Virus record (IMG/VR): IMGVR_UViG_2703718856_000005
DNA: 51,466 nucleotides
Direction: 5' to 3' (one strand)
Source: a virus
Taxonomy: Duplodnaviria > Heunggongvirae > Uroviricota > Caudoviricetes
Below are positions 3,309 to 48,141 of the stretch, in pieces. The notes under the pieces are model-generated. The model was given only the letters and a program-made list of their open reading frames with translations, was not told the origin of the DNA and did not search any database. Within the stretch, counting starts at the first letter, position 1; each line of letters starts with the position of its first letter. Made by a program: the position numbers and the translations under genes.

Positions 3309-3884
3309 CTACGGCAGTGCTGGCCATTCAATATCCTGTGCAGTTGACGTATCAACACGGTTCAGCAATACCCGATACTTTTTCCATGCTTCCAGCAACG
3401 AGATTTCTTCCTCCGTTGCAATTTCCAGATCTGCAGCATCCTGAAGCGGCGCAATATGCTCACTGGCTACCTGCATCAGGCTGTTTTTTGTTTCTTCCGC
3501 CTCCCGGATCCGGAACAGTTTTTCTGCTTCCGTATCCTTCACCCAGGCTGTGCCGTTCCACTTCTGATATTCCCCTCCCGGCGATAACCAGGTAACATTT
3601 TCCGGTAACGGACCGAGTTCAGAAATAAATAACGCGTCGCCGGAAGCCACGTCATAAACCGTTTTACCCCGATGATCTTCAACGAGATGCCACGATGCCT
3701 CATCACTGTTGAAAACAGCCACGAAGCCTGCCGGAATATCTGGCGGTGCAATATCGATACTGTTTGCTGGCAGACCTGTATGAGGCGGAATATATGCGTC
3801 ACCTTCACCAATAAATTCATTAGTTCCGGCCAGCAGATTATAAATTTTTATGGTCCGTGGTTGTTCACTCATTCTGAATGCCAT
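3309..3884 (-). CDS. tfa: tail fibre assembly protein Tfa
   Basis: 191 aa ORF immediately downstream of stf, start overlapping the stf stop; translation recalled as the lambda/Qin Tfa family. Confidence 0.85.
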
Positions 3885-28162: not shown

Positions 28163-28391
28163 GCAAAAAAGCTCCCGAAGGAGCCTTCATTTTCACTTTT
28201 TTAAATCCAACGACAGACGGCTGGCATTTAAGTATTGTGAAATATTATCAAATGTAATCATCATTGATTTACAAAAGATACATTTTGCCCCGAAAGGATT
28301 CATGTCAGAAACATCAAAAGATGATGTTCTATACTGGGAACCATGACAACACGGGCATCTAAAGTGAATATGGTTTGTAATATTGTCTACC

Positions 28392-28604
28392 TCAAAGCGC
28401 CACTACATGAACAGCGGCAGGACCTTTAGGTCCGTTCTCAATACCAAATTCAACTTCCTGATTCTCAGTTAATGTTTTGAAATCGTTGCTCTGAATTGCT
28501 GAGAAATGGACAAACACATCTTTGCTGCCATCTTTCGGCGTGATGAAACCAAAACCTTTTTCAGGGTTAAACCATTTCACTAAACCAGTCATTTTGTTAG
28601 ACAT
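28392..28604 (-). CDS. cspI: cold shock protein CspI-like
   Basis: 70 aa; RNP motifs KGFGFI and VFVHF. Confidence 0.9.
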
Positions 28605-28966
28605 AATTATTACCTTTTGAAGAAATTAGCCCTTGGGCAGAATGGTCCGAAAAAAAATATCAGAGAGAAAAACCAACAAGGAAATCTCAAGAGGTACAAA
28701 TAATAAAATTATAACAATGACTGCTTCAGATAAATTTGTAACAAACCAGAACACCATTAACGCATGATTAACCACCCATAGCAAGGATTACTTTTGTAAA
28801 GAAAAACACAGCAATGAAAGAATAGCTTTATTTATTAATAAAACGTGTCATTCTGATTAAGACCTTTTATCTTACCCTTAAGATTTCAGGAATTTTGGCT
28901 CATGGAAGAGTCCTTTTTATTTAAATTTTACATTCCGCGATGTAAATGTTCCGATTTAATATTACC

Positions 28967-30993: not shown

Positions 30994-31275
30994 TGAGATT
31001 GTGGTGCTTTTTGTGGGAGTCATCCACTTACGCACTTTGTTTTGCCATGCCAGCAGTTAGCTTCTGCTGTAAAACTATTCATGCAGCAAACCTGCACTTC
31101 ACCACAATGGTTAGCATACTTTTCCTGATTAATATTTTGCCAAATATGCTAGCCATTGTTTCATGTATTGGACCTCCTTACTTTTTATTAAAGAGATCCA
31201 ATATTCACTACTCTGTCCGTATCTCTACTCAGGCATCAGCCTTCTTCGTTATCGTATACAGACGAGCGATGAATT

Positions 31276-31491
31276 TTAATCAGTAATGATGACATTTGCT
31301 GCTGCAGGACCTTTAGCACCACTCTCTATAGAGAAGGTAACCTTTTGACCTTCAAATAAGGTTCGATAATTATCATTCTGAATCGCAGAAAAATGCACAA
31401 ACACATCTTTACTACCATCAACAGGAGAAATAAAGCCGAAACCTTTATCAGCGTTAAACCATTTTACTAAACCAGTCATTTTATTTGACAT
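31276..31491 (-). CDS. cspB: cold shock protein CspB-like
   Basis: 71 aa; [23 protein letters not shown] with RNP motifs. Confidence 0.9.
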
Positions 31492-31791
31492 TCTACATTC
31501 CTTAACTTGAGCCTTTCGGCATAAATGGTTTGCATAACAGAAACGACTTCGTACTTAATTGGAGAGACTCAAAGAAGGAATAAGTGAATAACACCTGAAA
31601 TGAGAACTGCTTTAGTAAACTACTTCGTATATCGTCTGTTCTTCAAACCGACGCAATCATTAACGCATAGTTGAACATATGAAGCAATGTTTATTTTAGA
31701 CATCCAGCCATCTTCAACCCCATCAAAAAACTATAGCTTTCTTCAGGAACGTGTGTATAGTGCGCCAAGTTATCAGTATTAAGGAATTTTT

Positions 31792-34587: not shown

Positions 34588-34839
34588 TTATTCTCCTGAA
34601 AAAGCAGAAAAGCCAGCTTTTATTCCGATCTCTTTCAATGCCTGTAATGAAGTGACAAACTCACCTTCGCGCAAGATAAATCCGTCCGTGACCCGAGCAT
34701 CCACAAAATTAATTAACGCAGCCCCATTCTTTCGCAAACACATAATGCGGTAATGACTAACAAGATTTCCATTTTCAACGCACACAGCATAGAGGCCATC
34801 TTCACAAAAAATTTTACGCAGTTCTTCGATGTTCATCAT
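34588..34839 (-). CDS. hypothetical protein, 83 aa
   Basis: ORF between rem and the terminator of the relBE-hokD operon; no family recognised. Confidence 0.4.
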   Translation of the reverse strand: MMNIEELRKIFCEDGLYAVCVENGNLVSHYRIMCLRKNGAALINFVDARVTDGFILREGEFVTSLQALKEIGIKAGFSAFSGE

Positions 34840-34955
34840 CAGAATCCTTCCGGATAATTAGCTCTCCCCTTTAAGGGACCATCCCTCTTATCCCTGCGCG
34901 CTACTTAAGTATTTTTGATTCTATTCCGGCACCGTCCAGAACTTCAAACGCGTTG

Positions 34956-34991
34956 AAAATAAAAACAAAAACCCGCCGAAGCGGGTTAAGT
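34956..34991 (-). terminator. rho-independent terminator of the relB-relE-hokD transcript
   Basis: AACCCGCTTCGGCGGGTT hairpin followed by TTTTTGTTTTTATTTT on the minus strand. Confidence 0.55.
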
Positions 34992-35055
34992 GCGGGTGCG
35001 TTGAGGATGCCTGCCACATCAGAGGTGGCGAGGGATTTCTCCCCCGCCGGGTCTC

Positions 35056-38424: not shown

Positions 38425-38758
38425 GAAAAATCCCCCAGAGAATTGTCTGGGGACATTTTAGAATGGTTCAAAGGGGACATTACAGCTTGGTGTTAACAAT
38501 AGCCTGCTTCTCCGTGCCTTTCGGCACGTAAGAGGCTAACCTACATGTGTCTAGCATGAAATTGGCCTCAGATTAATGTTAAGCGTCTTGCAGGACGCGT
38601 AATGTTAACTGGGGCTTTTCTCTATCTGCCGTTGGTGTCCATGCCCGAGGCAGATAGCCTCAAGCACCCGCAGTCATTCTACTTAACTAAGATTTCCCCG
38701 CAAACCGTTTTTGTCCAGCACAGTAAATATCCAACTAAACCAATGGAGTTCGCTGTAT

Positions 38759-39668: not shown

Positions 39669-39824
39669 CGTCTTTTATTTCGTGGTATGAGTAATTGCAG
39701 TAGTTAAAGAAAATTTCTTATGCTCCGTCATGAATTTCCGTAAGCGTAAACTGACCGCCGTATGTAGCCATCAGACGAGAATTGGTAACTTAGACGCCCA
39801 TCTGATATAGACGGACATCTAAGT

Positions 39825-40250
39825 ATGGAATTACAGGACTGGCGAAAAGAACCTCGTAAAAACTATTCGAATGAATTCAAACTTCGTATGGTGGAACTGG
39901 CATCACAACCTGGAGCTTGTGTTGCACAGATTGCACGTGAAAATGGCGTCAATGATAATGTTATTTTCAAATGGCTCAGGCTCTGGCAGAACGAAGGGCG
40001 TGTTTCGCGGCGTCTTCCGGTAACGACCTCTTCTGACACTGGCGTTGAATTATTACCTGTAGAAATAACGCCGGATGAGCAGAAAGAACCTGTGGCGGCC
40101 ATTGCGCCGTCTTTATCCACTTCCACTCAGACCAGAGTCAGTGCCAGTTCCTGCAAGGTGGAATTCCGTCACGGTAACATGACGCTGGAAAATCCATCGC
40201 CAGAGCTGCTCACAGTGTTGATCCGTGAACTGACCGGGAGGGGAAGATGA
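39825..40250 (+). CDS. tnpA: IS66-family accessory protein TnpA (orf1)
   Basis: 141 aa with helix-turn-helix, first ORF of the element. Confidence 0.85.
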   Translation: MELQDWRKEPRKNYSNEFKLRMVELASQPGACVAQIARENGVNDNVIFKWLRLWQNEGRVSRRLPVTTSSDTGVELLPVEITPDEQKEPVAAIAPSLSTSTQTRVSASSCKVEFRHGNMTLENPSPELLTVLIRELTGRGR

Positions 40251-40597
40251 TCTCACTCCCATCAGGTACCCGTATCTGGCTCGTTGCCGGCGTTACCGAT
40301 ATGCGTAAATCCTTCAACGGACTGGGAGAACAGGTACAACATGTGCTGAATGATAATCCCTTCTCCGGTCACCTGTTTATCTTCCGTGGCCGACGGGGTG
40401 ACACCGTCAAAATTCTTTGGGCTGATGCTGATGGTCTGTGCCTGTTCACCAAACGCCTGGAGGAAGGCCAGTTTATCTGGCCTGCGGTACGTGACGGCAA
40501 GGTATCCATTACCCGCTCGCAACTGGCAATGCTCCTCGATAAGCTGGACTGGCGTCAGCCAAAAACATCCAGCCGTAACTCACTGACAATGTTGTAA
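40247..40597 (+). CDS. tnpB: IS66-family TnpB (orf2)
   Basis: 116 aa; start overlaps the tnpA stop. Confidence 0.9.
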   Translation: MISLPSGTRIWLVAGVTDMRKSFNGLGEQVQHVLNDNPFSGHLFIFRGRRGDTVKILWADADGLCLFTKRLEEGQFIWPAVRDGKVSITRSQLAMLLDKLDWRQPKTSSRNSLTML

Positions 40598-40627
40598 AAA
40601 ACTCCTGACCGCATTATAAAAACGGTC

Positions 40628-42241
40628 ATGAGTCAGAAATACCTCATTCGCATCGCAGAGCTGGAAAGGTTGCTCTCTGAGCAGGCTGAAGCCCTCCGTC
40701 AGAAAGACCAGCAACTGAGTCTGGTTGAAGAGACGGAAGCCTTCCTGCGCTCTGCACTGACACGTGTCGAAGAAAAGATCGAAGAAGATGAACGGGAAAT
40801 AGAACATCTGCGGGCTCAGATAGAAAAACTGCGCCGGATGCTGTTCGGTACCCGTTCTGAAAAACTGCGTCGTGAAGTTGAACTGGCTGAGGCTCTGCTG
40901 AAACAACGTGAACAGGACAGCGATCGTTACAGTGGGCGGGAAGACGATCCTCAGGTTCCCCGCCAGTTGCGACAGTCGCGCCATCGTCGTCCGTTACCGG
41001 CACACCTTCCCCGTGAAATACACCGCCTGGAGCCAGAAGAAAGCTGTTGCCCGGAGTGTGGCGGTGAGCTGGATTATCTGGGGGAAGTCAGCGCTGAACA
41101 GCTGGAACTGGTGAGCAGTGCCCTGAAAGTGATCCGCACAGAACGGGTAAAAAAAGCCTGTACAAAATGTGACTGTATTGTTGAAGCACCGGCGCCGTCC
41201 CGCCCGGTAGAGCGTGGTATCGCGGGCCCCGGATTACTTGCCCGCGTGTTAACGGGAAAATACTGCGAACATCTGCCACTGTATCGTCAGAGTGAAATCT
41301 TTGCCCGCCAGGGTGTCGAACTGAGCCGGGCCTTACTCTCCAACTGGGTTGACGCGTGCTGCCAGTTAATGACACCGGTGAATGATGCCCTGTACCGTTA
41401 TGTAATGAACACCCGCAAGGTTCACACTGATGACACACCGGTAAAGGTACTGGCACCGGGTCAGAAAAAGGCGAAAACAGGGCGTATCTGGACGTATGTC
41501 CGGGATGATCGCAATGTGGGTTCGTCATCTCCTCCAGCGGTCTGGTTCGCGTACTCGCCGAACCGGCAGGGGAAACACCCGGAGCAACACCTCCGCCCCT
41601 TCCGGGGTATCCTGCAGGCGGATGCGTTCACAGGTTACGACAGGTTGTTCAGTGCAGAACGTGAAGGTGGTGCACTGACAGAAGTTGCGTGCTGGGCCCA
41701 TGCCCGGCGAAAAATCCACGATGTATACATCAGCAGCAAAAGTGCGACGGCAGAAGAAGCCCTGAAGCGAATCAGTGAACTGTACGCCATCGAGGATGAA
41801 ATACGGGGATTACCGGAGTCAGAGCGTCTTGCCGTCAGGCAGCAGCGAAGCAAAGTGTTACTGACGTCGCTGCATGAATGGATGGTGGAGAAGAATGGTA
41901 CGCTGTCGAAAAAATCCAGACTGGGCGAAGCGTTCAGCTATGTACTGAATCAGTGGGATGCCCTCTGTTATTACAGTGATGACGGTCTGGCGGAGGCGGA
42001 TAATAATGCTGCGGAAAGAGCGCTTCGTGCAGTCTGTCTCGGAAAGAAAAACTTTATGTTCTTTGGCAGCGATCACGGCGGCGAGCGTGGAGCACTGTTG
42101 TACGGGCTGATCGGCACCTGCCGTCTGAACGGTATCGATCCGGAAGCGTATCTGCGCCATATCCTGAGCGTACTGCCGGAATGGCCTTCCAACCGAGTTG
42201 ATGAACTCCTGCCATGGAACGTAGTACTCACCAATAAATAA
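40628..42241 (+). CDS. tnpC: IS66-family transposase TnpC (orf3)
   Basis: 537 aa; N-terminal coiled coil, CxxC zinc motifs, DDE-type core. Confidence 0.9.
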   Translation: MSQKYLIRIAELERLLSEQAEALRQKDQQLSLVEETEAFLRSALTRVEEKIEEDEREIEHLRAQIEKLRRMLFGTRSEKLRREVELAEALLKQREQDSDRYSGREDDPQVPRQLRQSRHRRPLPAHLPREIHRLEPEESCCPECGGELDYLGEVSAEQLELVSSALKVIRTERVKKACTKCDCIVEAPAPSRPVERGIAGPGLLARVLTGKYCEHLPLYRQSEIFARQGVELSRALLSNWVDACCQLMTPVNDALYRYVMNTRKVHTDDTPVKVLAPGQKKAKTGRIWTYVRDDRNVGSSSPPAVWFAYSPNRQGKHPEQHLRPFRGILQADAFTGYDRLFSAEREGGALTEVACWAHARRKIHDVYISSKSATAEEALKRISELYAIEDEIRGLPESERLAVRQQRSKVLLTSLHEWMVEKNGTLSKKSRLGEAFSYVLNQWDALCYYSDDGLAEADNNAAERALRAVCLGKKNFMFFGSDHGGERGALLYGLIGTCRLNGIDPEAYLRHILSVLPEWPSNRVDELLPWNVVLTNK

Positions 42242-42630
42242 GCGTCAATACGGTGCTCCGTTGACGCTTACGAATTTCCTCAGGTGTTGCGTCATCGTCC
42301 ACTTCGAATACATCCTCAAAATCTCCACCAGCTATTCCCGTTTCAATAATAATTTTGAACTTTCGCATTTCACTACCGCCCTTTCGGGCGGCCTCCTGAT
42401 GTTCTGAGGGTGCAGAAATCCATCCGGTTAAGGATTAAATTTTATTTACAGAACTGAATTTAATTATTCAGATATACGTATCTGTAGCCTTACGAATCTA
42501 CTCACTGGATGCCTCTTTCATAAAAATAATCCAGTGGGTTTTATCGTTTTTTCCCTGTTCGTTGACAGATAACAGGTTTTCTGTCTGTCAGTGCCAGAAT
42601 CTGGCTTACCGGTATTTGCGTTTCATTCCA

Positions 42631-43446: not shown

Positions 43447-44466
43447 TTATCCTCTGAAACCAGGCGGAATTTCTGTATCCGGTTCAGAAATATGATTAAC
43501 ACAACGCTGTACAGGTGAACGTCCCAGGCGGATGACCAGTTCGTCCCATTTTTCGCGGAGCTTTGACGGGCTCATGATGTTTTTTACCCAGAATGGATCT
43601 CGCTGAACCCGACCAAACATTTCGCAAATTTGTCTGTGGCTTCTGCCATCCAGCATCCGCATTGTGCGCACGTCATTGGCCCAGGCAGTCCAGTTAGGCT
43701 CTTTTGGTCGCATGATCTCGCCATCATCACTGGCTGCCTGTTCGTAGAGACCCACGATCCGCCCCCAGATCCACTGCGCACACGCCAAATCCTCCCTGCT
43801 ACCCCACTGGCGTTTTTTCGCACTAAACACAACCGCGTCGGAGTTCCGGGTTAAAAAATCCTGTTCAGTCGTCTGCGGGTCCGGTTGCGAAGCTTCCGGA
43901 CGAAAAGTGTTTTTATTCTCTGTAGTAATCTCTGTTGTATTCTCTGTAAGATCATCAGGCCATTTTGACCCGATGACATTGGGTCGTTTTGAACCAATGG
44001 AGCGTTTCATTTTGACCTCTTCCATCGTGTCATTTTGACCTGATGGAGCGGCGCATTTTGAACCGATGGATTCGCTCAATTTGCCACCATCTAAAAGCTC
44101 GCTCCCATAGTTGATCGTGTAGAAATTGGTCATATCGCGCTTTGATTTATTGAGCTTTTCACAACGCAAAAGCCCCAGCGTTTTCAGACTTGCAAACGCG
44201 CGCTTTAACGTTGACTCTGACCAGAATGGGAACTGTTCCAGCCATTGTTCCGTTGTGTTATAAATCCAGCGAACACCATCACATTCCATGCCGGAGTTGG
44301 TATCTCTCAACCAGTAGTGCAGTTGTTGCAAAACAATGGCTTCGTTTAAGCCAATTTTCATTGCCAGCTGCGTGTTTATAACCAGTGGGCGTTCAGCAAA
44401 AAGAAGGCTCATAATTCCATCCAGCTTTTTGTTGGTATTGCTGTCGATACGCAAGTTTGAAAGCAA
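43447..44466 (-). CDS. phage replication initiator / replisome-organiser-type protein, iterons within the gene (alternative start at 44412)
   Basis: N-terminal winged-helix-like segment MSLLFAERPLVINTQLAMKIGLNEAIVLQQLHYWL; repeated IGSK peptide motif encoded by the DNA iterons. Confidence 0.75.
   Translation of the reverse strand: MLSNLRIDSNTNKKLDGIMSLLFAERPLVINTQLAMKIGLNEAIVLQQLHYWLRDTNSGMECDGVRWIYNTTEQWLEQFPFWSESTLKRAFASLKTLGLLRCEKLNKSKRDMTNFYTINYGSELLDGGKLSESIGSKCAAPSGQNDTMEEVKMKRSIGSKRPNVIGSKWPDDLTENTTEITTENKNTFRPEASQPDPQTTEQDFLTRNSDAVVFSAKKRQWGSREDLACAQWIWGRIVGLYEQAASDDGEIMRPKEPNWTAWANDVRTMRMLDGRSHRQICEMFGRVQRDPFWVKNIMSPSKLREKWDELVIRLGRSPVQRCVNHISEPDTEIPPGFRG
43961..44092. repeat. origin-like iteron array: about six copies of CATTTTGACC-type repeats at roughly 23 bp spacing, with three TCTCTGT repeats just beside it (43918..43950)
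   Basis: Repeats read directly at about 43961, 43987, 44009, 44031, 44054 and 44078. Confidence 0.7.
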
Positions 44467-44914
44467 TTGCTTTTTCTATAAGTTCGTCAGTTTCACGATC
44501 CACTACGGCAGGATCAGCAAAAAGCAGTCCGGACTCCACCACATCGCCATATTCTTTGTTTAACCCGGCGATCATGCACGTGATGCTTTTTCCGTCAGTA
44601 ATTTCACGATACAACCTGAAATCATTAATCCGGATAGCCTCCATAATTGCAGGCACTAGCGCCGTGAACTTTTCACGCTTATCCCTGGTGTCGATAGCCT
44701 TCCAGCGTTCAAATATCTTCACTCGATTAACGCCAAGCGCTCGCTGATCAATCGCGCCACCTTCATATGTGACACGCTGAACATCGATGTTCGGGCGCTC
44801 TTTCAAAGCCCAGAATGCTTCAGTGATTAATATCGTCGCCTGCTCCTGTGTCATTCCTGGTCGACATATCCAGGCATCCAGAGCCTCACGAGCCTGTTCA
44901 GGAGTGATTTTCAT
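44393..44914 (-). CDS. hypothetical protein, 173 aa, first gene after dicC
   Basis: ORF overlapping the dicC stop and the initiator start; family not recognised. Confidence 0.45.
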   Translation of the reverse strand: MKITPEQAREALDAWICRPGMTQEQATILITEAFWALKERPNIDVQRVTYEGGAIDQRALGVNRVKIFERWKAIDTRDKREKFTALVPAIMEAIRINDFRLYREITDGKSITCMIAGLNKEYGDVVESGLLFADPAVVDRETDELIEKAIAFKLAYRQQYQQKAGWNYEPSFC

Positions 44915-45128
44915 TGTTCAACCGCCCCGCCCGCTTCGTCTTACGATATTCATCATAAACTTTGGGATCATACTGAAGCTCCCCGCCAGATGCCTCCTGT
45001 AGACGCATCGCGCGACCTTCGGGAACTAAATCCCCTTTCCAGCTATAAAGCGAAGCCAAACGAATACCTGCTGCTTGTGCAAGTTTTGTTTTTGAACCGA
45101 AATACAAAAGAGCGTCAGTTTTAAGCAT
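44898..45128 (-). CDS. dicC: DicC, Cro-like regulator
   Basis: 76 aa, recalled as DicC; divergent from dicA. Confidence 0.85.
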   Translation of the reverse strand: MLKTDALLYFGSKTKLAQAAGIRLASLYSWKGDLVPEGRAMRLQEASGGELQYDPKVYDEYRKTKRAGRLNNENHS

Positions 45129-45211
45129 TTAAAACACCTTTATTGTTAGTCATAACTAACAAGATAGATGTTAACAAAAACATAGTCAATACGATTTAGC
45201 ATTAGCTAACT
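45129..45211. promoter_or_regulatory. dicA/dicC divergent promoter-operator region with three palindromes
   Basis: TTGTTAGT-CATA-ACTAACAA (45143..45162), ATGTT-AACAAA-AACAT (45169..45184), TTAGC-ATTA-GCTAA (45196..45209). Confidence 0.6.
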
Positions 45212-45619
45212 ATGGAAACAAAAAATTTAACTATCGGCGAACGCATCAGGTATCGTCGGAAAAACCTCAAACACACCCAAAGGTCTCTTGCTAAAGCCCT
45301 GAAAATCTCCCATGTGTCTGTATCACAATGGGAACGGGGTGATAGTGAACCTACAGGGAAGAACCTTTTTGCCCTCAGCAAAGTATTGCAATGCTCACCA
45401 ACATGGATTCTATTTGGCGATGAAGACAAGCAACCAACACCACCTGTTGAGAAGCCAGTTGCCTTATCCCCCAAAGAACTAGAGCTCCTTGAGCTGTTTA
45501 ATGCACTGCCAGAATCAGAACAGGATACCCAGCTCGCCGAAATGCGAGCTCGAGTAAAAAACTTCAATAAACTCTTTGAAGAATTACTAAAAGCCCGTCA
45601 GCGGACAAATAAAAGATAA
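45212..45619 (+). CDS. dicA: DicA, helix-turn-helix repressor
   Basis: 135 aa, recalled as DicA; XRE-type helix-turn-helix near the N-terminus. Confidence 0.9.
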   Translation: METKNLTIGERIRYRRKNLKHTQRSLAKALKISHVSVSQWERGDSEPTGKNLFALSKVLQCSPTWILFGDEDKQPTPPVEKPVALSPKELELLELFNALPESEQDTQLAEMRARVKNFNKLFEELLKARQRTNKR

Positions 45620-45785
45620 CATCATCAATGAGTTATCTTTTACCACATCAATTATGTTAGCTATAGCATACAAAATCACTTGACCGATATGTTAGTCATG
45701 GCTAATCTTGTTTGCATCAACACACCGCACGGTGTTCTCAGCAAACAGTTCCGCTACCCCAGCGTTAAGGGGAAATGAGGTCAGC

Positions 45786-45941
45786 ATGGATACTATCGAT
45801 CTTGGCAACAACGAATCTCTGGTGTACGGCGTGTTTCCAAACCAGGACGGCACGTTCACCGCAATGACGTATACCAAAAGCAAAACGTTTAAAACCGAAA
45901 ATGGTGCCCGTCGCTGGCTGGAAAGAAACTCAGGTGAGTGA
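45786..45941 (+). CDS. ydfA: YdfA-like small protein (51 aa)
   Basis: MDTIDLGNNESLVYGVFPNQDGTFTAMTYTK from the internal ATG at 45786. Confidence 0.75.
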   Translation: MDTIDLGNNESLVYGVFPNQDGTFTAMTYTKSKTFKTENGARRWLERNSGE

Positions 45942-45942
45942 T

Positions 45943-46071
45943 ATGGATTTCGACACAATCATGGAAAAGGCTTACGAAGAATACTTCGAAGGCCTTGCCG
46001 AAGGCGAAGAAGCTCTCAGCTTCAGTGAGTTTAAACAGGCGCTTTCCAGTTCGGCAAAATCTAACGGCTGA
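45943..46071 (+). CDS. ydfB: YdfB-like small protein (42 aa)
   Basis: Hand translation MDFDTIMEKAYEEYFEGLAEGEEALSFSEFKQALSSSAKSNG; below track cutoff. Confidence 0.6.
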   Translation: MDFDTIMEKAYEEYFEGLAEGEEALSFSEFKQALSSSAKSNG

Positions 46072-46100
46072 TAAGCGAAACAGCACCGCGAGGAATCAGT

Positions 46101-46319
46101 ATGCAGAAACGAGAACCCGTCATCATCGCGCCAGACTATACCGATGATGAACTTTATGAGTGGATGCGCCAGAAAATTAATGCAGCGCAGGATCTGAAAT
46201 GGGCTAATGAAGCCAGGGCTAAGCAGGCTGAAAATCTGTCCGCTCTGGAGCAGGATATCACCAATCTGGAAAAAGCAGCGGCATTAAGCATTGCCAGAAT
46301 GATTACATACCCGCGTTAG
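46101..46319 (+). CDS. ydfC: YdfC-like protein
   Basis: 72 aa, position and sequence as recalled for Qin. Confidence 0.8.
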   Translation: MQKREPVIIAPDYTDDELYEWMRQKINAAQDLKWANEARAKQAENLSALEQDITNLEKAAALSIARMITYPR

Positions 46320-46659
46320 TAGCTAATCAACAAAGCTAAGGTTAGTAATTAAGGAGTTCTCCACGGGTGAGGTGGAGTGCGTGCGCCGGACACGGGTGCG
46401 CATCCGGAACTGACAGTTTACTGAAAGGATATTTCCCTGAAAAGTCAGACCATAACGCGAAAGCGCACGGCGAGGTAGCTGGTTCATAGATAGCCTGTCG
46501 TTAAATTTTCGTCGACCGTGCGCTTCCGGTTGTGGCAACCCGCGAAATGGCGCGGCGGTAAGTATGGCGGGGTTATTCCTTCCCCGTTGAGGACACCGGG
46601 TTGTCAGGTTGACCATACGCTTAAGTGACAACCCCGCTGCAACGCCCTCTGTTATCAAT

Positions 46660-46717
46660 TTTCTGGTGACGTTTGGCGGTATCAGTTTTACTCCGTGACT
46701 GCTCTGCCGCCCTTTTT
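46660..46717 (+). ncRNA. dicF: DicF small RNA (ftsZ-targeting, Hfq-dependent), with its intrinsic terminator
   Basis: TTTCTGGTGACGTTTGGCGGTATCAGTTTTACTCCGTGACTGCTCTGCCGCCCTTTTT matches the recalled DicF sequence; sits between ydfC and dicB. Confidence 0.7.
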
Positions 46718-46886
46718 AAAGTGAATTTTGTGATGTGGTGAATGCGGCTGAGCGCACGCGGAACAGTTAAAACCCAAAACAGTGTTATGGGTGGATTCTC
46801 TGTATCCGGCGTTAATTGTTAACTGGTTAACGTCACCTGGAGGCACCAGGCACTGCATCACAAAATTCATTGTTGAGGACGCGATA

Positions 46887-47075
46887 ATGAAAACGTTATT
46901 ACCAAACGTTAATACGTCTGAAGGTTGTTTTGAAATTGGTGTCACTATCAGTAACCCAGTATTTACTGAAGATGCCATTAACAAGAGAAAACAAGAACGG
47001 GAGCTATTAAATAAAATATGCATTGTTTCAATGCTGGCTCGTTTACGTCTGATGCCAAAAGGATGTGCACAATGA
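46887..47075 (+). CDS. dicB: DicB cell division inhibitor (62 aa)
   Basis: MKTLLPNVNTSEGCFEIGVTISNPVF from the internal ATG at 46887. Confidence 0.85.
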   Translation: MKTLLPNVNTSEGCFEIGVTISNPVFTEDAINKRKQERELLNKICIVSMLARLRLMPKGCAQ

Positions 47076-47263
47076 ATTCAGCATTTGTGCTTGTTCTGAC
47101 AGTTTTTCTTGTTTCCGGAGAGCCAGTTGATATTGCAGTCAGTGTTCACAGGACAATGCAGGAGTGTATGACTGCAGCAACCGAACAGAAAATTCCCGGT
47201 AACTGTTACCCGGTCGATAAAGTTATTCACCAGGATAATATCGAAATCCCGGCAGGTCTTTAA
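47072..47263 (+). CDS. ydfD: YdfD-like small membrane protein (63 aa)
   Basis: MNSAFVLVLTVFLVSGEPVDIAVSVHRT; ATGA overlap with the dicB stop. Confidence 0.8.
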   Translation: MNSAFVLVLTVFLVSGEPVDIAVSVHRTMQECMTAATEQKIPGNCYPVDKVIHQDNIEIPAGL

Positions 47264-47319
47264 AACAGTTCCGTAATAAATATCCGGTTTCATTCTTATA
47301 TGCCAGCAATGGCAGGGAT

Positions 47320-48045
47320 TTGTTCATCCTTAAATCTGTCATGAGGTTAAAACAAATGAGTAAAGTCTTTATTTGCGCCGCTATTCCTGACGAACTGGCA
47401 ACAAGGGAAGAAGGCGCTGTGGCTGTAGCCACAGCCATTGAAGCTGGCGACGAACGCCGTGCTCGAGCAAAATTTCACTGGCAATTCCTGGAACATTATC
47501 CGGCTGCTCAGGACTGCGCTTATAAATTTATTGTCTGCGAGGATAAACCTGGCATACCCCGCCCTGCCCTCGATTCATGGGATGCTGAATATATGCAGGA
47601 AAACCGCTGGGATGAGGAGTCTGCTTCTTTTGTCCCGGTTGAGACTGAATCCGATCCGATGAACGTCACTTTTGACAAGCTGGCCCCTGAAGTACAGAAC
47701 GCTGTCATGGTTAAGTTCGACACATGTGAAAACATCACCGTTGATATGGTTATTAGCGCACAGGAATTGTTGCAGGAAGACATGGCAACATTCGACGGAC
47801 ATATCGTTGAAGCGTTGATGAAAATGCCAGAAGTTAACGCCATGTATCCGGAGCTTAAGTTGCACGCCATTGGGTGGGTTAAGCATAAATGTATTCCTGG
47901 TGCTAAATGGCCCGAAATTCAGGCAGAGATGCGCATCTGGAAAAAACGTCGCGAAGGTGAACGCAAGGAAACCGGAAAATACACGTCTGTTGTTGATCTC
48001 GCCCGCGCCAGAGCCAATCAACAGTACACTGAAAATTCAACATGA
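47320..48045 (+). CDS. ydfE: YdfE-like protein, apparently full length (about 229 to 241 aa)
   Basis: ORF following ydfD; the K-12 counterpart is recalled as a fragment. Confidence 0.5.
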   Translation: MFILKSVMRLKQMSKVFICAAIPDELATREEGAVAVATAIEAGDERRARAKFHWQFLEHYPAAQDCAYKFIVCEDKPGIPRPALDSWDAEYMQENRWDEESASFVPVETESDPMNVTFDKLAPEVQNAVMVKFDTCENITVDMVISAQELLQEDMATFDGHIVEALMKMPEVNAMYPELKLHAIGWVKHKCIPGAKWPEIQAEMRIWKKRREGERKETGKYTSVVDLARARANQQYTENST

Positions 48046-48141
48046 AAAATCAGCCCGGTCATTGCTGCCATTCATCGCGAATACAAGCAGACATGGAAAA
48101 CACTGGATGACGAACTGGCCTACGCTCTCTGGCCTAGTGAT

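Follow-up and report, generated by a model that had tools for sequence, protein, structure and literature searches.

The dicA/dicC immunity region of a Qin-type prophage: predicted operators of unequal strength between divergent repressor genes and a DicA protein lacking an autocleavage domain

The divergent genes dicC (44898-45128, minus strand) and dicA (45212-45619, plus strand) lie in the window, the whole 51,466-nucleotide stretch of viral DNA analysed here, and raise the question of which elements in the short DNA between them form an immunity switch and how such a switch is induced. The initial annotation had called both genes at these coordinates and put them 83 bp apart; both the calls and the spacing agree with the ORF list, the gap running from 45129 to 45211 with a GC content of 26.5%. 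Hundreds of E. coli chromosomes in RefSeq, annotated with dicA, dicC and ydfA, match the surrounding 1 kb at 100% identity. Compared with the Qin prophage of MG1655, there are four differences in 3,488 bp, none of them in intergenic or other regulatory DNA, and the sole difference in dicA is at a third codon position (45379). The divergent pair is followed by ydfA-ydfB-ydfC-dicF-dicB, with an Rfam match to DicF at 46661-46712, and this order is colinear with MG1655 Qin. The prophage also runs colinear with PhiR42_1, a deposited phage that encodes a repressor 100% identical to DicA. We consider, with a probability of roughly 0.93, that the locus represents the immunity (lysis-lysogeny) region of a lambdoid prophage of the Qin/Kim type, that its regulatory DNA is identical to the K-12 dicA-dicC-dicB region, and that its operators, switch and RecA-independent induction are as proposed below. 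Since the regulatory DNA is identical, results obtained in K-12 transfer directly to the prophage in the window.

The dicA/dicC switch found here is already known and is not new. According to the later papers, through which the content of Bejar et al. 1986 and Bejar et al. 1988 is cited here, the locus, three putative operators, a DicA without a cleavage site, a bistable switch and Rem belong to a literature of 1986-1988 that was extended in 2011, 2012, 2023 and 2024. The window and the cryptic Qin (Kim) prophage of K-12 (b1569/b1570) share the genes, the 83-bp gap, the three gap sites Oc, Om and Oa, the promoter dicBp and rem. However, the prophage copy in the window is more complete than K-12 Qin, as it keeps the YdaT-like, replication, DUF977 and methyltransferase genes together with xis and int. 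Its exonuclease ORF (561 aa) is longer than the K-12 ydfE pseudogene, the E. coli C version having 825 aa, and an IS66-family insertion of 2.5 kb (39740-42271) is a further difference from K-12 Qin. This Qin-type prophage was probably recently active.

The gene dicA encodes a CI-like immunity repressor of 135 aa, an assignment made from the ORF list and profile matches. It matched Pfam HTH_3 (E=1.3e-16) and NCBIfam DicA NF007257 (234.3 bits, above the cutoff of 101), and Phage_CI_repr also fell on the dicA side of the gap. The DNA-binding domain of P22 c2 matched residues 7-71 (E=8e-20), and an AlphaFold (AF2) model of DicA (pLDDT 85) was matched by Foldseek to 3jxb with an rmsd of 0.6 Å over 66 residues at 56% identity. 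Its HTH domain spans about residues 7-70, and a Pro-rich linker (about 71-86) leads from there to a helix-turn-long-helix tail of about 50 residues (87-134), which the model shows as just two helices, 87-97 and the long 101-134. DicA probably dimerises through this C-terminal helical hairpin. A previously proposed resemblance of the C-terminus to the MarR/SlyA/RovA winged helix (PMC3441716) was unsupported by profile search or model: DicA gave no MarR-family Pfam match at E<=10, residues 80-135 form no winged helix-turn-helix in the model, and no MarR/SlyA structure appeared in the 50 best PDB matches that Foldseek listed for it. No Shine-Dalgarno sequence precedes the dicA ATG, and no convincing sigma-70 promoter for dicA was readable in a scan of 44850-45850, as was likewise reported previously (PMC3441716, PMC7567609); we infer the exact position of PdicA.

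The gene dicC encodes a Cro-like repressor of 76 aa, again called from the ORF list and profile matches (Pfam P22_Cro, E=1.7e-11; NCBIfam DicC NF007282, 159.5 bits, above the cutoff of 130; P22 Cro structure PDB 1rzs, E=7e-6), and the identical DNA is annotated dicC in RefSeq. It is the first gene of a rightward (PR-like) operon and overlaps the next ORF, which is YdaT-like (44393-44914), by 17 nt. Its promoter, PdicC (45161-45189, minus strand), has a -35 element TTGACT (45189-45184), a 17-nt spacer and a -10 element TATCTT (45166-45161), and is the only sigma-70-like match in 44850-45850. Its position agrees with the dicC start and promoter mapped by 5'-RACE (PMC3441716).

Three palindromes are present in the gap, namely TTGTTAGTCATAACTAACAA at 45143-45162 (8-bp arms), ATGTTAACAAAAACAT / TGTTAACA at 45168-45183 (5-bp arms) and TTAGCATTAGCTAA at 45196-45209 (5-bp arms). 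In 5,000 dinucleotide-preserving shuffles of the 83-mer, arms of at least 8 bp arose with P = 0.026, while arms of at least 5 bp were present in 66%. The palindromes are accordingly not significant in themselves, as only the one at 45143-45162 beats chance. Bare palindromes are uninformative here because 5-bp arms are common in AT-rich shuffles; the real support comes from a shared motif. This motif, TGTTAG-N6-CTAACA, occurs in the gap and at two sites downstream of dicA and nowhere else in the 51 kb. Its core TTAGYNNNNRCTAA (TTAGY-N4-RCTAA) occurs exactly three times in the 51 kb (45146, 45196 and 45692) against an expected 0.05, a count of three that was reached in 0 of 100 shuffles. With a half-site matrix (PWM) built from six other loci only, leaving out the window and any middle site, the top four of 51,449 18-mers were Oc (25.4), OB2 (21.8), Oa (20.8) and OB1 (19.3), and the best non-operator 18-mer in the window scored 7.8.

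The three sites of the gap are unequal. Oc (45143-45162; TTGTTAGTCATAACTAACAA), a strong DicA operator ranked first by the PWM, overlaps the end of the PdicC -10 element and the start site, which resembles the role of OR1. The operator cloned in pHL1105, which is bound by DicA in vivo and loses binding upon a single A-to-C change (PMC3441716), has the identical sequence, and among 28 natural variants the changes in Oc are confined to the central TCATAA spacer. Oa (45194-45211; ATTTAGCATTAGCTAACT, with the core TTAGCATTAGCTAA at 45196-45209) ranks third with an exact core match and abuts the dicA ATG, ending 1 nt ahead of it, an OR3-like location; DicC probably acts at this site to turn dicA off. 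Om (45169-45186; TGTTAACAAAAACATAGT), the middle candidate, is weak, with a PWM score of 0.5 (rank 35 of 51,449, top 0.07%); it lies inside the PdicC spacer and pairs a good half-site (TGTTAA) with a poor one. Its centre is 25 bp from that of Oc and 25 bp from that of Oa, a register kept in seven loci, where the site at the Om position falls in the top 0.008-0.7% of 18-mers by PWM. Reading Om in the register of the 16-mer ATGTTAACAAAAACAT was rejected, since its half-site spacing is 4 bp shorter and relatives do not keep it. Three operators have been reported in the dicA-dicC gap (PMC10448788), but isolated Om and Oa were unbound by DicA in vivo (data not shown in PMC3441716). Because they did not bind, 'three DicA operators' is not fully demonstrated, and a model with three DicA sites is one suggested by sequence and comparative evidence. 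The gap holds two clear operators and one marginal one, so of the earlier reading of three operator palindromes the palindromes themselves and the strong motif matches of Oc and Oa stand, but Om is only a weak match.

Beyond dicA, two further operators with clear motif matches and a promoter were found, both operators falling outside the 44898-45619 segment that had been marked as the switch, which also omits rem. The PL-like promoter dicBp of ydfABC-dicF-dicB (45680-45708, plus strand) would consist of TTGACC (45680-45685), a 17-nt spacer and TAATCT (45703-45708), as we infer from the sequence, the -10 element being too weak for the promoter scan. OB1 (45655-45672; TGTTAGCTATAGCATACA), a DicA-type candidate ranked fourth by the PWM, lies just upstream of the dicBp -35 element. 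OB2 (45690-45707; TGTTAGTCATGGCTAATC), ranked second and matching the core exactly, occupies the spacer and reaches into the -10 element. Previous studies showed that DicA represses dicBp 22-fold (PMC10448788), and a second DicC site on the downstream side of dicA was inferred from ChIP-seq (PMC11430063). The literature mentions three dicBp operators; a candidate for the third, TGTTTGCATCAACACACC (45709-45726), was rejected, as it ranks 37th by PWM and is not conserved in relatives. An 11-bp inverted repeat at 45610-45642 was also rejected as an operator, having a different half-site and no conservation.

Eleven diverged loci, obtained from phage records, a genome scan and encoding-contig look-ups, were compared with the window. 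A scan of viral contigs yielded relatives only 93-100% identical, which served the analysis of polymorphism, not divergence, and nothing new was found in the mEp460 literature. A divergent P22_Cro gene across a gap of 74-87 bp (about 81 bp in L096, should an upstream ATG be the true start) is retained in all 11, and the three upstream sites are kept in 11/11. The two downstream sites, among them an OB1 equivalent (33-36 bp from OB2 in the six loci measured), and the -35/operator/-10 layout of dicBp are kept in 10/11, the exception in each case being L096. The -35 core TTGAC (GTCAA on the plus strand) is found at the PdicC position in nine of the 11 loci, L096 having ATCAA and L097 GTAAA. In 11 of the 12 TTAG-core loci a palindrome resembling Oa lies directly against the dicA ATG, and in phiES15 (L011) it ends 5 nt before the ATG. 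The nine TGTTAG-type loci share conserved, asymmetric Oa flanks, A(T/A)TTAG to the left and CTAACT to the right, and in the CTTAG-type loci L010 and L098 Oa ends in CCTAAT. The Om position is a good palindrome in other specificity groups, GTAG-N6-CTAA in L010/L098 and TTCG-N6-CGAA in L012, and its conservation could partly reflect its location within the PdicC promoter. The operator motif covaries with the recognition helix across the diverged loci: ISHVSVSQWER pairs with TGTTAG-N6-CTAACA, VAHVTISQWE(R/T) with (C/G)TTAG-N6-CTAA(G/C) (CTTAG...CTAAG in L010/L098 and TGTTAG...CTAACA in L012), and KSSVSVFKWE with CTAAC-N4-GTTAG. Within the TGTTAG group the spacing is constant partly through shared ancestry, because the loci compared are homologous.

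Two other accounts of the gap were weighed against this evidence. It is unlikely that Oc is the sole genuine operator in the gap, with Om and Oa being no more than incidental AT-rich palindromes or elements of a promoter, as the frequency of 5-bp arms in shuffled 83-mers, the failure of DicA to bind isolated Om and Oa in vivo (PMC3441716) and the PWM score of 0.5 for Om would suggest. Against it, only two 18-mers in the 51 kb outscore Oa on the PWM, the best non-operator standing at 7.8, and Oa carries the exact core that is otherwise present only at Oc and OB2. Moreover, all three positions persist across the 11 diverged loci, with the motif switching together with the recognition helix, and the middle site is clearly palindromic in L010, L098, L012 and L011. 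A cell contains only about 20-25 copies of DicA (PMC7567609), and weak or cooperative sites would be missed by a single-site in vivo assay. A much more plausible account, though we would still lean slightly away from it, takes all three sites as functional, with Oc, aided by Om, as the DicA site and Oa as essentially a DicC (Cro) site never occupied by DicA at physiological levels. The lack of DicA binding to isolated Oa (PMC3441716) fits this division, as do the outer bases of Oa, which are non-consensus and conserved in the nine TGTTAG-type loci (A(T/A)TTAG instead of TGTTAG, and CTAACT). For the DicC ChIP motif (PMC11430063) the TTNG...CNAA core is sufficient, and that core is perfect in Oa; the position of Oa against the dicA start is the expected place for Cro-like action. 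However, the DicC site at Oa is putative at base resolution, and the lambda and P22 repressors also fill OR3 at high concentration, as by analogy DicA might; in any case, such a division refines the main model and does not contradict it.

The other question is whether DicA might be inactivated by RecA-stimulated self-cleavage in the SOS response, like lambda CI and P22 c2, which the 56-59% identity of its N-terminal domain to that of the self-cleaving P22 c2 would bring to mind. We regard this as extremely improbable. DicA has 135 aa against the 216 aa of c2, Pfam gave no Peptidase_S24 match in it even at E<=10, and no Ala-Gly or Cys-Gly dipeptide occurs in any of its 135 residues, the absence of the Ala-Gly bond having been reported previously (PMC10448788). 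Its tail, as modelled, forms two helices instead of a beta-rich protease fold. Lacking an S24 autoprotease and an Ala-Gly site, DicA is therefore not cleavable via RecA, and deletion of recA left spontaneous and urea induction unchanged (PMC10448788). DicA has also been placed explicitly in the non-cleaved Gifsy-type repressor class (PMC3121763). The original description of DicA as a short HTH protein without an autocleavage domain thus holds, and so does the expectation that induction does not proceed by RecA-mediated cleavage.

Instead, recA-independent induction can be driven by the antirepressor Rem, which derepresses dicBp 165-fold in K-12 (PMC10448788). The window carries an intact rem gene (34591-34839, minus strand; 83 aa), matched by tblastn at 100% identity over 83 aa to Rem of an E. 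coli C-type Qin record. It lies in the rightward operon region about 10 kb from the dicA/dicC switch, and its flanking DNA is 99.98% identical to K-12 Qin. LexA control of this antirepressor was considered and rejected, with no LexA box near rem and no convincing one anywhere in the window: CTGT-N8-ACAG with at most one mismatch is absent from about 900 bp upstream of rem, the nearest match (34164) lies about 410 bp downstream, and the only exact match in the window (13885) has a GC-rich spacer.

Taken as a switch within the Qin-type immunity region, DicA is a CI-like repressor that would act on 18-bp operators with the consensus TGTTAG-N6-CTAACA. The gap would offer it three sites 25 bp apart: a strong Oc on the PdicC -10/+1 region, a weak Om in the PdicC spacer, and Oa, with a strong core and atypical flanks, against the dicA start codon. 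At Oc, where DicA represses dicC and activates dicA in vivo (PMC3441716), it would turn dicC off and stimulate its own gene, and at OB1 and OB2, bracketing the -35 and -10 elements of the leftward promoter dicBp, it would shut off ydfABC-dicF-dicB. DicC, the Cro analogue, would read the same TTNG...CNAA core; its repression of dicA is established in the literature and takes place most plausibly at Oa, and its strongest ChIP-seq peak is the dicA promoter, with the motif TTNG...CNAA (PMC11430063). Mutual repression would make the switch bistable, as has been reported for the identical K-12 locus (PMC10448788, PMC11430063), and either Rem, the small antirepressor, or DicA-destabilising conditions, heat and urea among them, can flip it. 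In this scheme the parts played by Om and Oa are our reading. Tentatively, and a little short of an even chance, the sites may form a graded, conserved operator set that single-site assays miss, with Om as a cooperativity-dependent DicA site, Oa as an asymmetric, OR3-like site read preferentially by DicC, and a dicA mRNA that is leaderless or lacks a Shine-Dalgarno sequence, as that of lambda cI.

Among other known systems, immC of P22 (c2, cro and the 18-bp operators OR1-OR3) is close: the c2 DNA-binding domain is homologous to DicA residues 7-71 and P22 Cro to DicC, the genes diverge, a leftward promoter has operators of its own as well, and the operator between the genes is tripartite, as it would be here with Om counted. 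The operator sequence differs, and P22 c2 has an S24 autoprotease C-terminal domain with an Ala-Gly bond, whereas DicA has a short helical tail and dicA/dicC is not induced through RecA cleavage. The lambda cI/cro pair likewise sets a repressor against a Cro around three adjacent operators between divergent promoters, and shares positive autoregulation of the repressor, a PL-like second target and bistability (for DicA/DicC, PMC10448788). Unlike this pair, however, dicA/dicC has a 25/25 bp spacing, the activation site of DicA is Oc itself (PMC3441716), DicA has no self-cleavage, and the Cro fold and the CI C-terminal domain of lambda are unrelated to DicC and DicA. The Gifsy-1/-3 repressors GfoR/GfhR of Salmonella are also of about 135 aa without a cleavage motif and are inactivated by small prophage-encoded antirepressors (GfoA/GfhA), as rem encodes one in the window. 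Rem was indeed found through GfoA (PMC10448788), but the Gifsy antirepressors are LexA-controlled, while rem has no detectable LexA box nearby. SinR/SinI and the arbitrium phi106 repressor/AimX also combine an XRE-type HTH with a helical oligomerisation tail targeted by a small protein, and full-length architectural matches to the DicA model were found by Foldseek (1b0n, 9sf2 and 9iaq). However, SinR and phi106 match DicA loosely outside the HTH (rmsd 9-12 Å), with no sequence similarity in the tail, and the likeness is one of design alone.

As a discovery, the locus is of little importance, and the useful residue of the analysis is practical. The comparative data give independent support for Oa, and more weakly for Om, as real operators despite the published negative result. 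If the graded operator set suggested above is real, the DicA family would represent a compact natural series in which a fixed 25-bp scaffold has seen its operator specificity re-coded on at least three occasions, as TGTTAG-N6-CTAACA, CTTAG-N6-CTAAG and CTAAC-N4-GTTAG.

The Cro-like repressor gene dicC (44898-45128, minus strand, 76 aa) and the CI-like repressor gene dicA (45212-45619, plus strand, 135 aa) are divergently oriented and separated by an 83-bp gap (26.5% GC), so that gene calls and coordinates agree with the arrangement described in the initial annotation. A 1-kb query around the locus matched many E. coli chromosomes at 100% identity, where RefSeq annotates dicA, dicC, a YdaT-family gene, and ydfA. 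Compared with the Qin prophage of K-12 MG1655, 44635-48122 carries four mismatches in 3,488 bp, including one at a third codon position of dicA (45379), and both the dicC-dicA gap and the dicA-ydfA interval are free of mismatches; therefore, experimental results from K-12 are directly applicable here, and the essentials have all been published already, for a K-12 sequence identical to this one. Both proteins score above the curated cutoffs of their NCBIfam families, DicA and DicC. DicC is also matched by Pfam P22_Cro and by the structure of P22 Cro, and DicA residues 7-71 match the DNA-binding domain of P22 c2 (E=8e-20).

Three operator palindromes had been proposed in the gap, and three palindromes are present: TTGTTAGTCATAACTAACAA (45143-45162, 8-bp arms), ATGTTAACAAAAACAT (45168-45183, 5-bp arms), and TTAGCATTAGCTAA (45196-45209, 5-bp arms). 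When the 83-mer was shuffled 5,000 times with dinucleotide composition preserved, arms of at least 8 bp arose in 2.6% and arms of at least 5 bp in 66%; therefore, palindromy by itself backs only the first palindrome (45143-45162). On sequence grounds, the shared motif is stronger evidence than palindromy: the 51,466 bp contain exactly three copies of the core TTAGYNNNNRCTAA (45146, 45196, and 45692; 0.05 expected), a count reached in none of 100 shuffles. A 9-nt half-site matrix, derived from the operators of six other loci with the window and all middle sites excluded, was scanned over the 51,449 18-mers of the window. The best score was that of Oc, the site nearest dicC (45144, 25.4), followed by OB2, downstream of dicA (45690, 21.8), Oa, nearest dicA (45194, 20.8), and OB1, also downstream of dicA (45655, 19.3), while the next best score was 7.8. 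The middle site Om, taken as the 18-mer TGTTAACAAAAACATAGT (45169-45186), scored 0.5 (rank 35, top 0.07%), and, measured between centres, it is exactly 25 bp from both Oc and Oa. By these scores and core counts, Oc and Oa are clear operators in the gap and Om is a marginal one. Two more clear operators, OB1 and OB2, are predicted beyond the interval that the initial annotation covered.

Eleven diverged DicA-family loci (50-81% protein identity to DicA) were compared, from Salmonella, Citrobacter, Klebsiella-like, Cronobacter, Erwinia, and Serratia genomes and phages PPompW, phiES15, and BUCT709. All share one layout, including a divergent P22_Cro-family gene and a gap of 74-87 bp (about 81 bp in L096 if an upstream ATG is the true start), in which a strong palindrome adjoins the cro-like gene, a promoter-spacer site ends at a TTGAC-like -35 core (plus strand GTCAA in nine of the eleven, ATCAA in L096, and GTAAA in L097), and a palindrome abuts the repressor ATG (ending 5 nt before it in phiES15). 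On the downstream side of the repressor gene, two further sites surround a -35/-10 pair in every locus but L096, where none is visible. The operator motif varies together with the recognition helix: ISHVSVSQWER is paired with TGTTAG-N6-CTAACA, VAHVTISQWE(R/T) with (C/G)TTAG-N6-CTAA(G/C) (CTTAG...CTAAG in L010 and L098; TGTTAG...CTAACA in L012, which has a one-residue difference in its helix), and KSSVSVFKWE of phiES15 with CTAAC-N4-GTTAG. In Cronobacter phage phiES15 (L011, 2420-2500 and 2940-3000), the Qin-motif pentamers (GTTAG-N6-CTAAC) are thus turned inside out, with different spacing. Specificity groups other than TGTTAG have a good palindrome at the middle position; within the TGTTAG group, the middle site ranks in the top 0.008-0.7% of 18-mers and its 25/25-bp spacing does not vary, a constancy that in part reflects common descent. 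Viral contigs supplied 28 distinct near-identical variants, in which substitutions within Oc are confined to the central TCATAA, and Om and Oa are almost invariant.

The sole sigma-70-like match in the region lies on the minus strand (TTGACT, 45189-45184; 17 nt; TATCTT, 45166-45161) and is the dicC promoter mapped by 5'-RACE (PMC3441716). Oc overlies the end of its -10 element and the start site, Om occupies its spacer, and Oa lies upstream of its -35 element and ends one base before the dicA ATG. No good dicA promoter is readable from the sequence, none is apparent in PMC3441716 either, and Reg-Seq likewise failed to find one. No Shine-Dalgarno sequence lies ahead of dicA, and the third operator reaches 1-3 nt before the ATG in 11 of 12 loci (window 45194-45214; L005, L006, L010, L012, and L094-L099; the exception is phiES15), which together suggest that dicA mRNA is leaderless or Shine-Dalgarno-independent, like lambda cI from PRM.

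Downstream of dicA, TTGACC (45680-45685), 17 nt, and TAATCT (45703-45708) likely constitute dicBp, the PL-like dicB-operon promoter, as conservation supports; OB2 sits in its spacer and -10 element and OB1 just upstream of its -35 element. The dicB leader carries two conserved plus-strand hairpins, ACACCG-CA-CGGTGT (45722-45735) and CGCT-ACCCC-AGCG (45752-45764), the latter with compensatory changes in two of four pairs across 10 loci and resembling the stem of P22-type boxB; this second hairpin may be a nutL-like or put-like antitermination element. A perfect 11-bp inverted repeat, TAAAAGATAAC-N11-GTTATCTTTTA, spans the dicA stop codon (45610-45642). A classical terminator is ruled out, as the repeat is AT-rich without a T-tract; its half-site does not resemble that of the DicA operator, and the diverged relatives do not conserve the repeat.

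According to PMC11430063, the strongest DicC ChIP-seq signal lies at the promoter of this locus, and the DicC sites inferred on either side of dicA (palindromic motif TTNG...CNAA) match the two operator clusters found here. Isolated Om and Oa showed no DicA binding in vivo (data not shown in PMC3441716), and DicA is present at ~20-25 copies per cell. Given this low copy number, the strong motif score of Oa, its conserved and asymmetric flanks, and its location on the dicA start, the likeliest reading is that Oa is a low-affinity DicA site that is DicC-preferred (OR3-like) and that Om depends on cooperativity.

Only HTH-type profiles matched DicA. Neither Peptidase_S24 nor MarR-family profiles matched even at E<=10, and the protein contains no Ala-Gly or Cys-Gly dipeptide, bearing out the earlier view that it has no obvious autocleavage domain. 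The missing Ala-Gly bond is also reported in PMC10448788, and DicA was placed in the non-cleaved Gifsy repressor class (PMC3121763). The similarity to RovA/SlyA proposed in PMC3441716 finds no support in the MarR-family search or the structural model. The AlphaFold model (42-sequence alignment, mean pLDDT 85) consists of five helices (8-68), a Pro-rich linker, a short helix (87-97), and a long helix (101-134); Foldseek placed its N-domain on operator-bound P22 c2 (rmsd 0.6 A, 56% identity). Loose full-length matches were SinR/SinI and phi106 repressor/AimX, in which the helical tails of short XRE repressors are targeted by small proteins (SinI, AimX).

The antirepressor of DicA is encoded by rem (34591-34839, minus strand); the protein is 100% identical to Rem of an E. 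coli C-type Qin record, and the DNA around the gene matches K-12 Qin at 99.98% identity. No LexA-box-like site was found near or upstream of rem. Within 34591-35000 (minus strand), the gene is preceded by a hairpin resembling a terminator, aacccgcttcggcgggttttt, and by the promoter-like sequence TTGAAG-N18-TAGAAT. The left half of Oc, the 11-mer TTGTTAGTCAT, has one further exact copy in the window (0.03 expected), at 34753-34763 (minus strand) within the rem coding sequence, where the adjoining half is unrelated to the operator. The coding sequence may contain it by coincidence, though a DicA half-site inside the gene of its own antirepressor is curious. With Rem, dicBp activity rises 165-fold; spontaneous dicBp switch-on in about 1% of cells is DicC-dependent and recA- and rem-independent, and urea and heat are further inducers (PMC10448788). 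The suggestion that induction probably does not proceed by direct RecA-mediated cleavage is supported by the absence of Ala-Gly and the recA-independent switching (PMC10448788); overall, the initial observation is confirmed and its interpretation supported.

The integrase gene and the window end at exactly the same point, and the compared stretch (~30285-51466) runs colinear with the Qin-type prophages found in E. coli C/ATCC 8739. Relative to these, a 2,532-bp insertion (39740-42271) in a DUF7167 pseudogene carries an IS66-family transposase (40628-42241, plus strand), with an 8-bp overlap of flanks consistent with target-site duplication. Rfam gathering-level matches at 46661-46712, 28365-28750, 31260-31652, 38498-38669, and 3343-3541 comprise DicF sRNA, two cspA-type thermoregulator leaders, sok antitoxin RNA, and IS009. 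From Q to int, by way of rem and the dicC/dicA immunity region, gene order is the same in the deposited phage PhiR42_1 (host ECOR13), whose repressor is identical to DicA of the window; apparently complete phages therefore still exist in the lineage to which the switch belongs.
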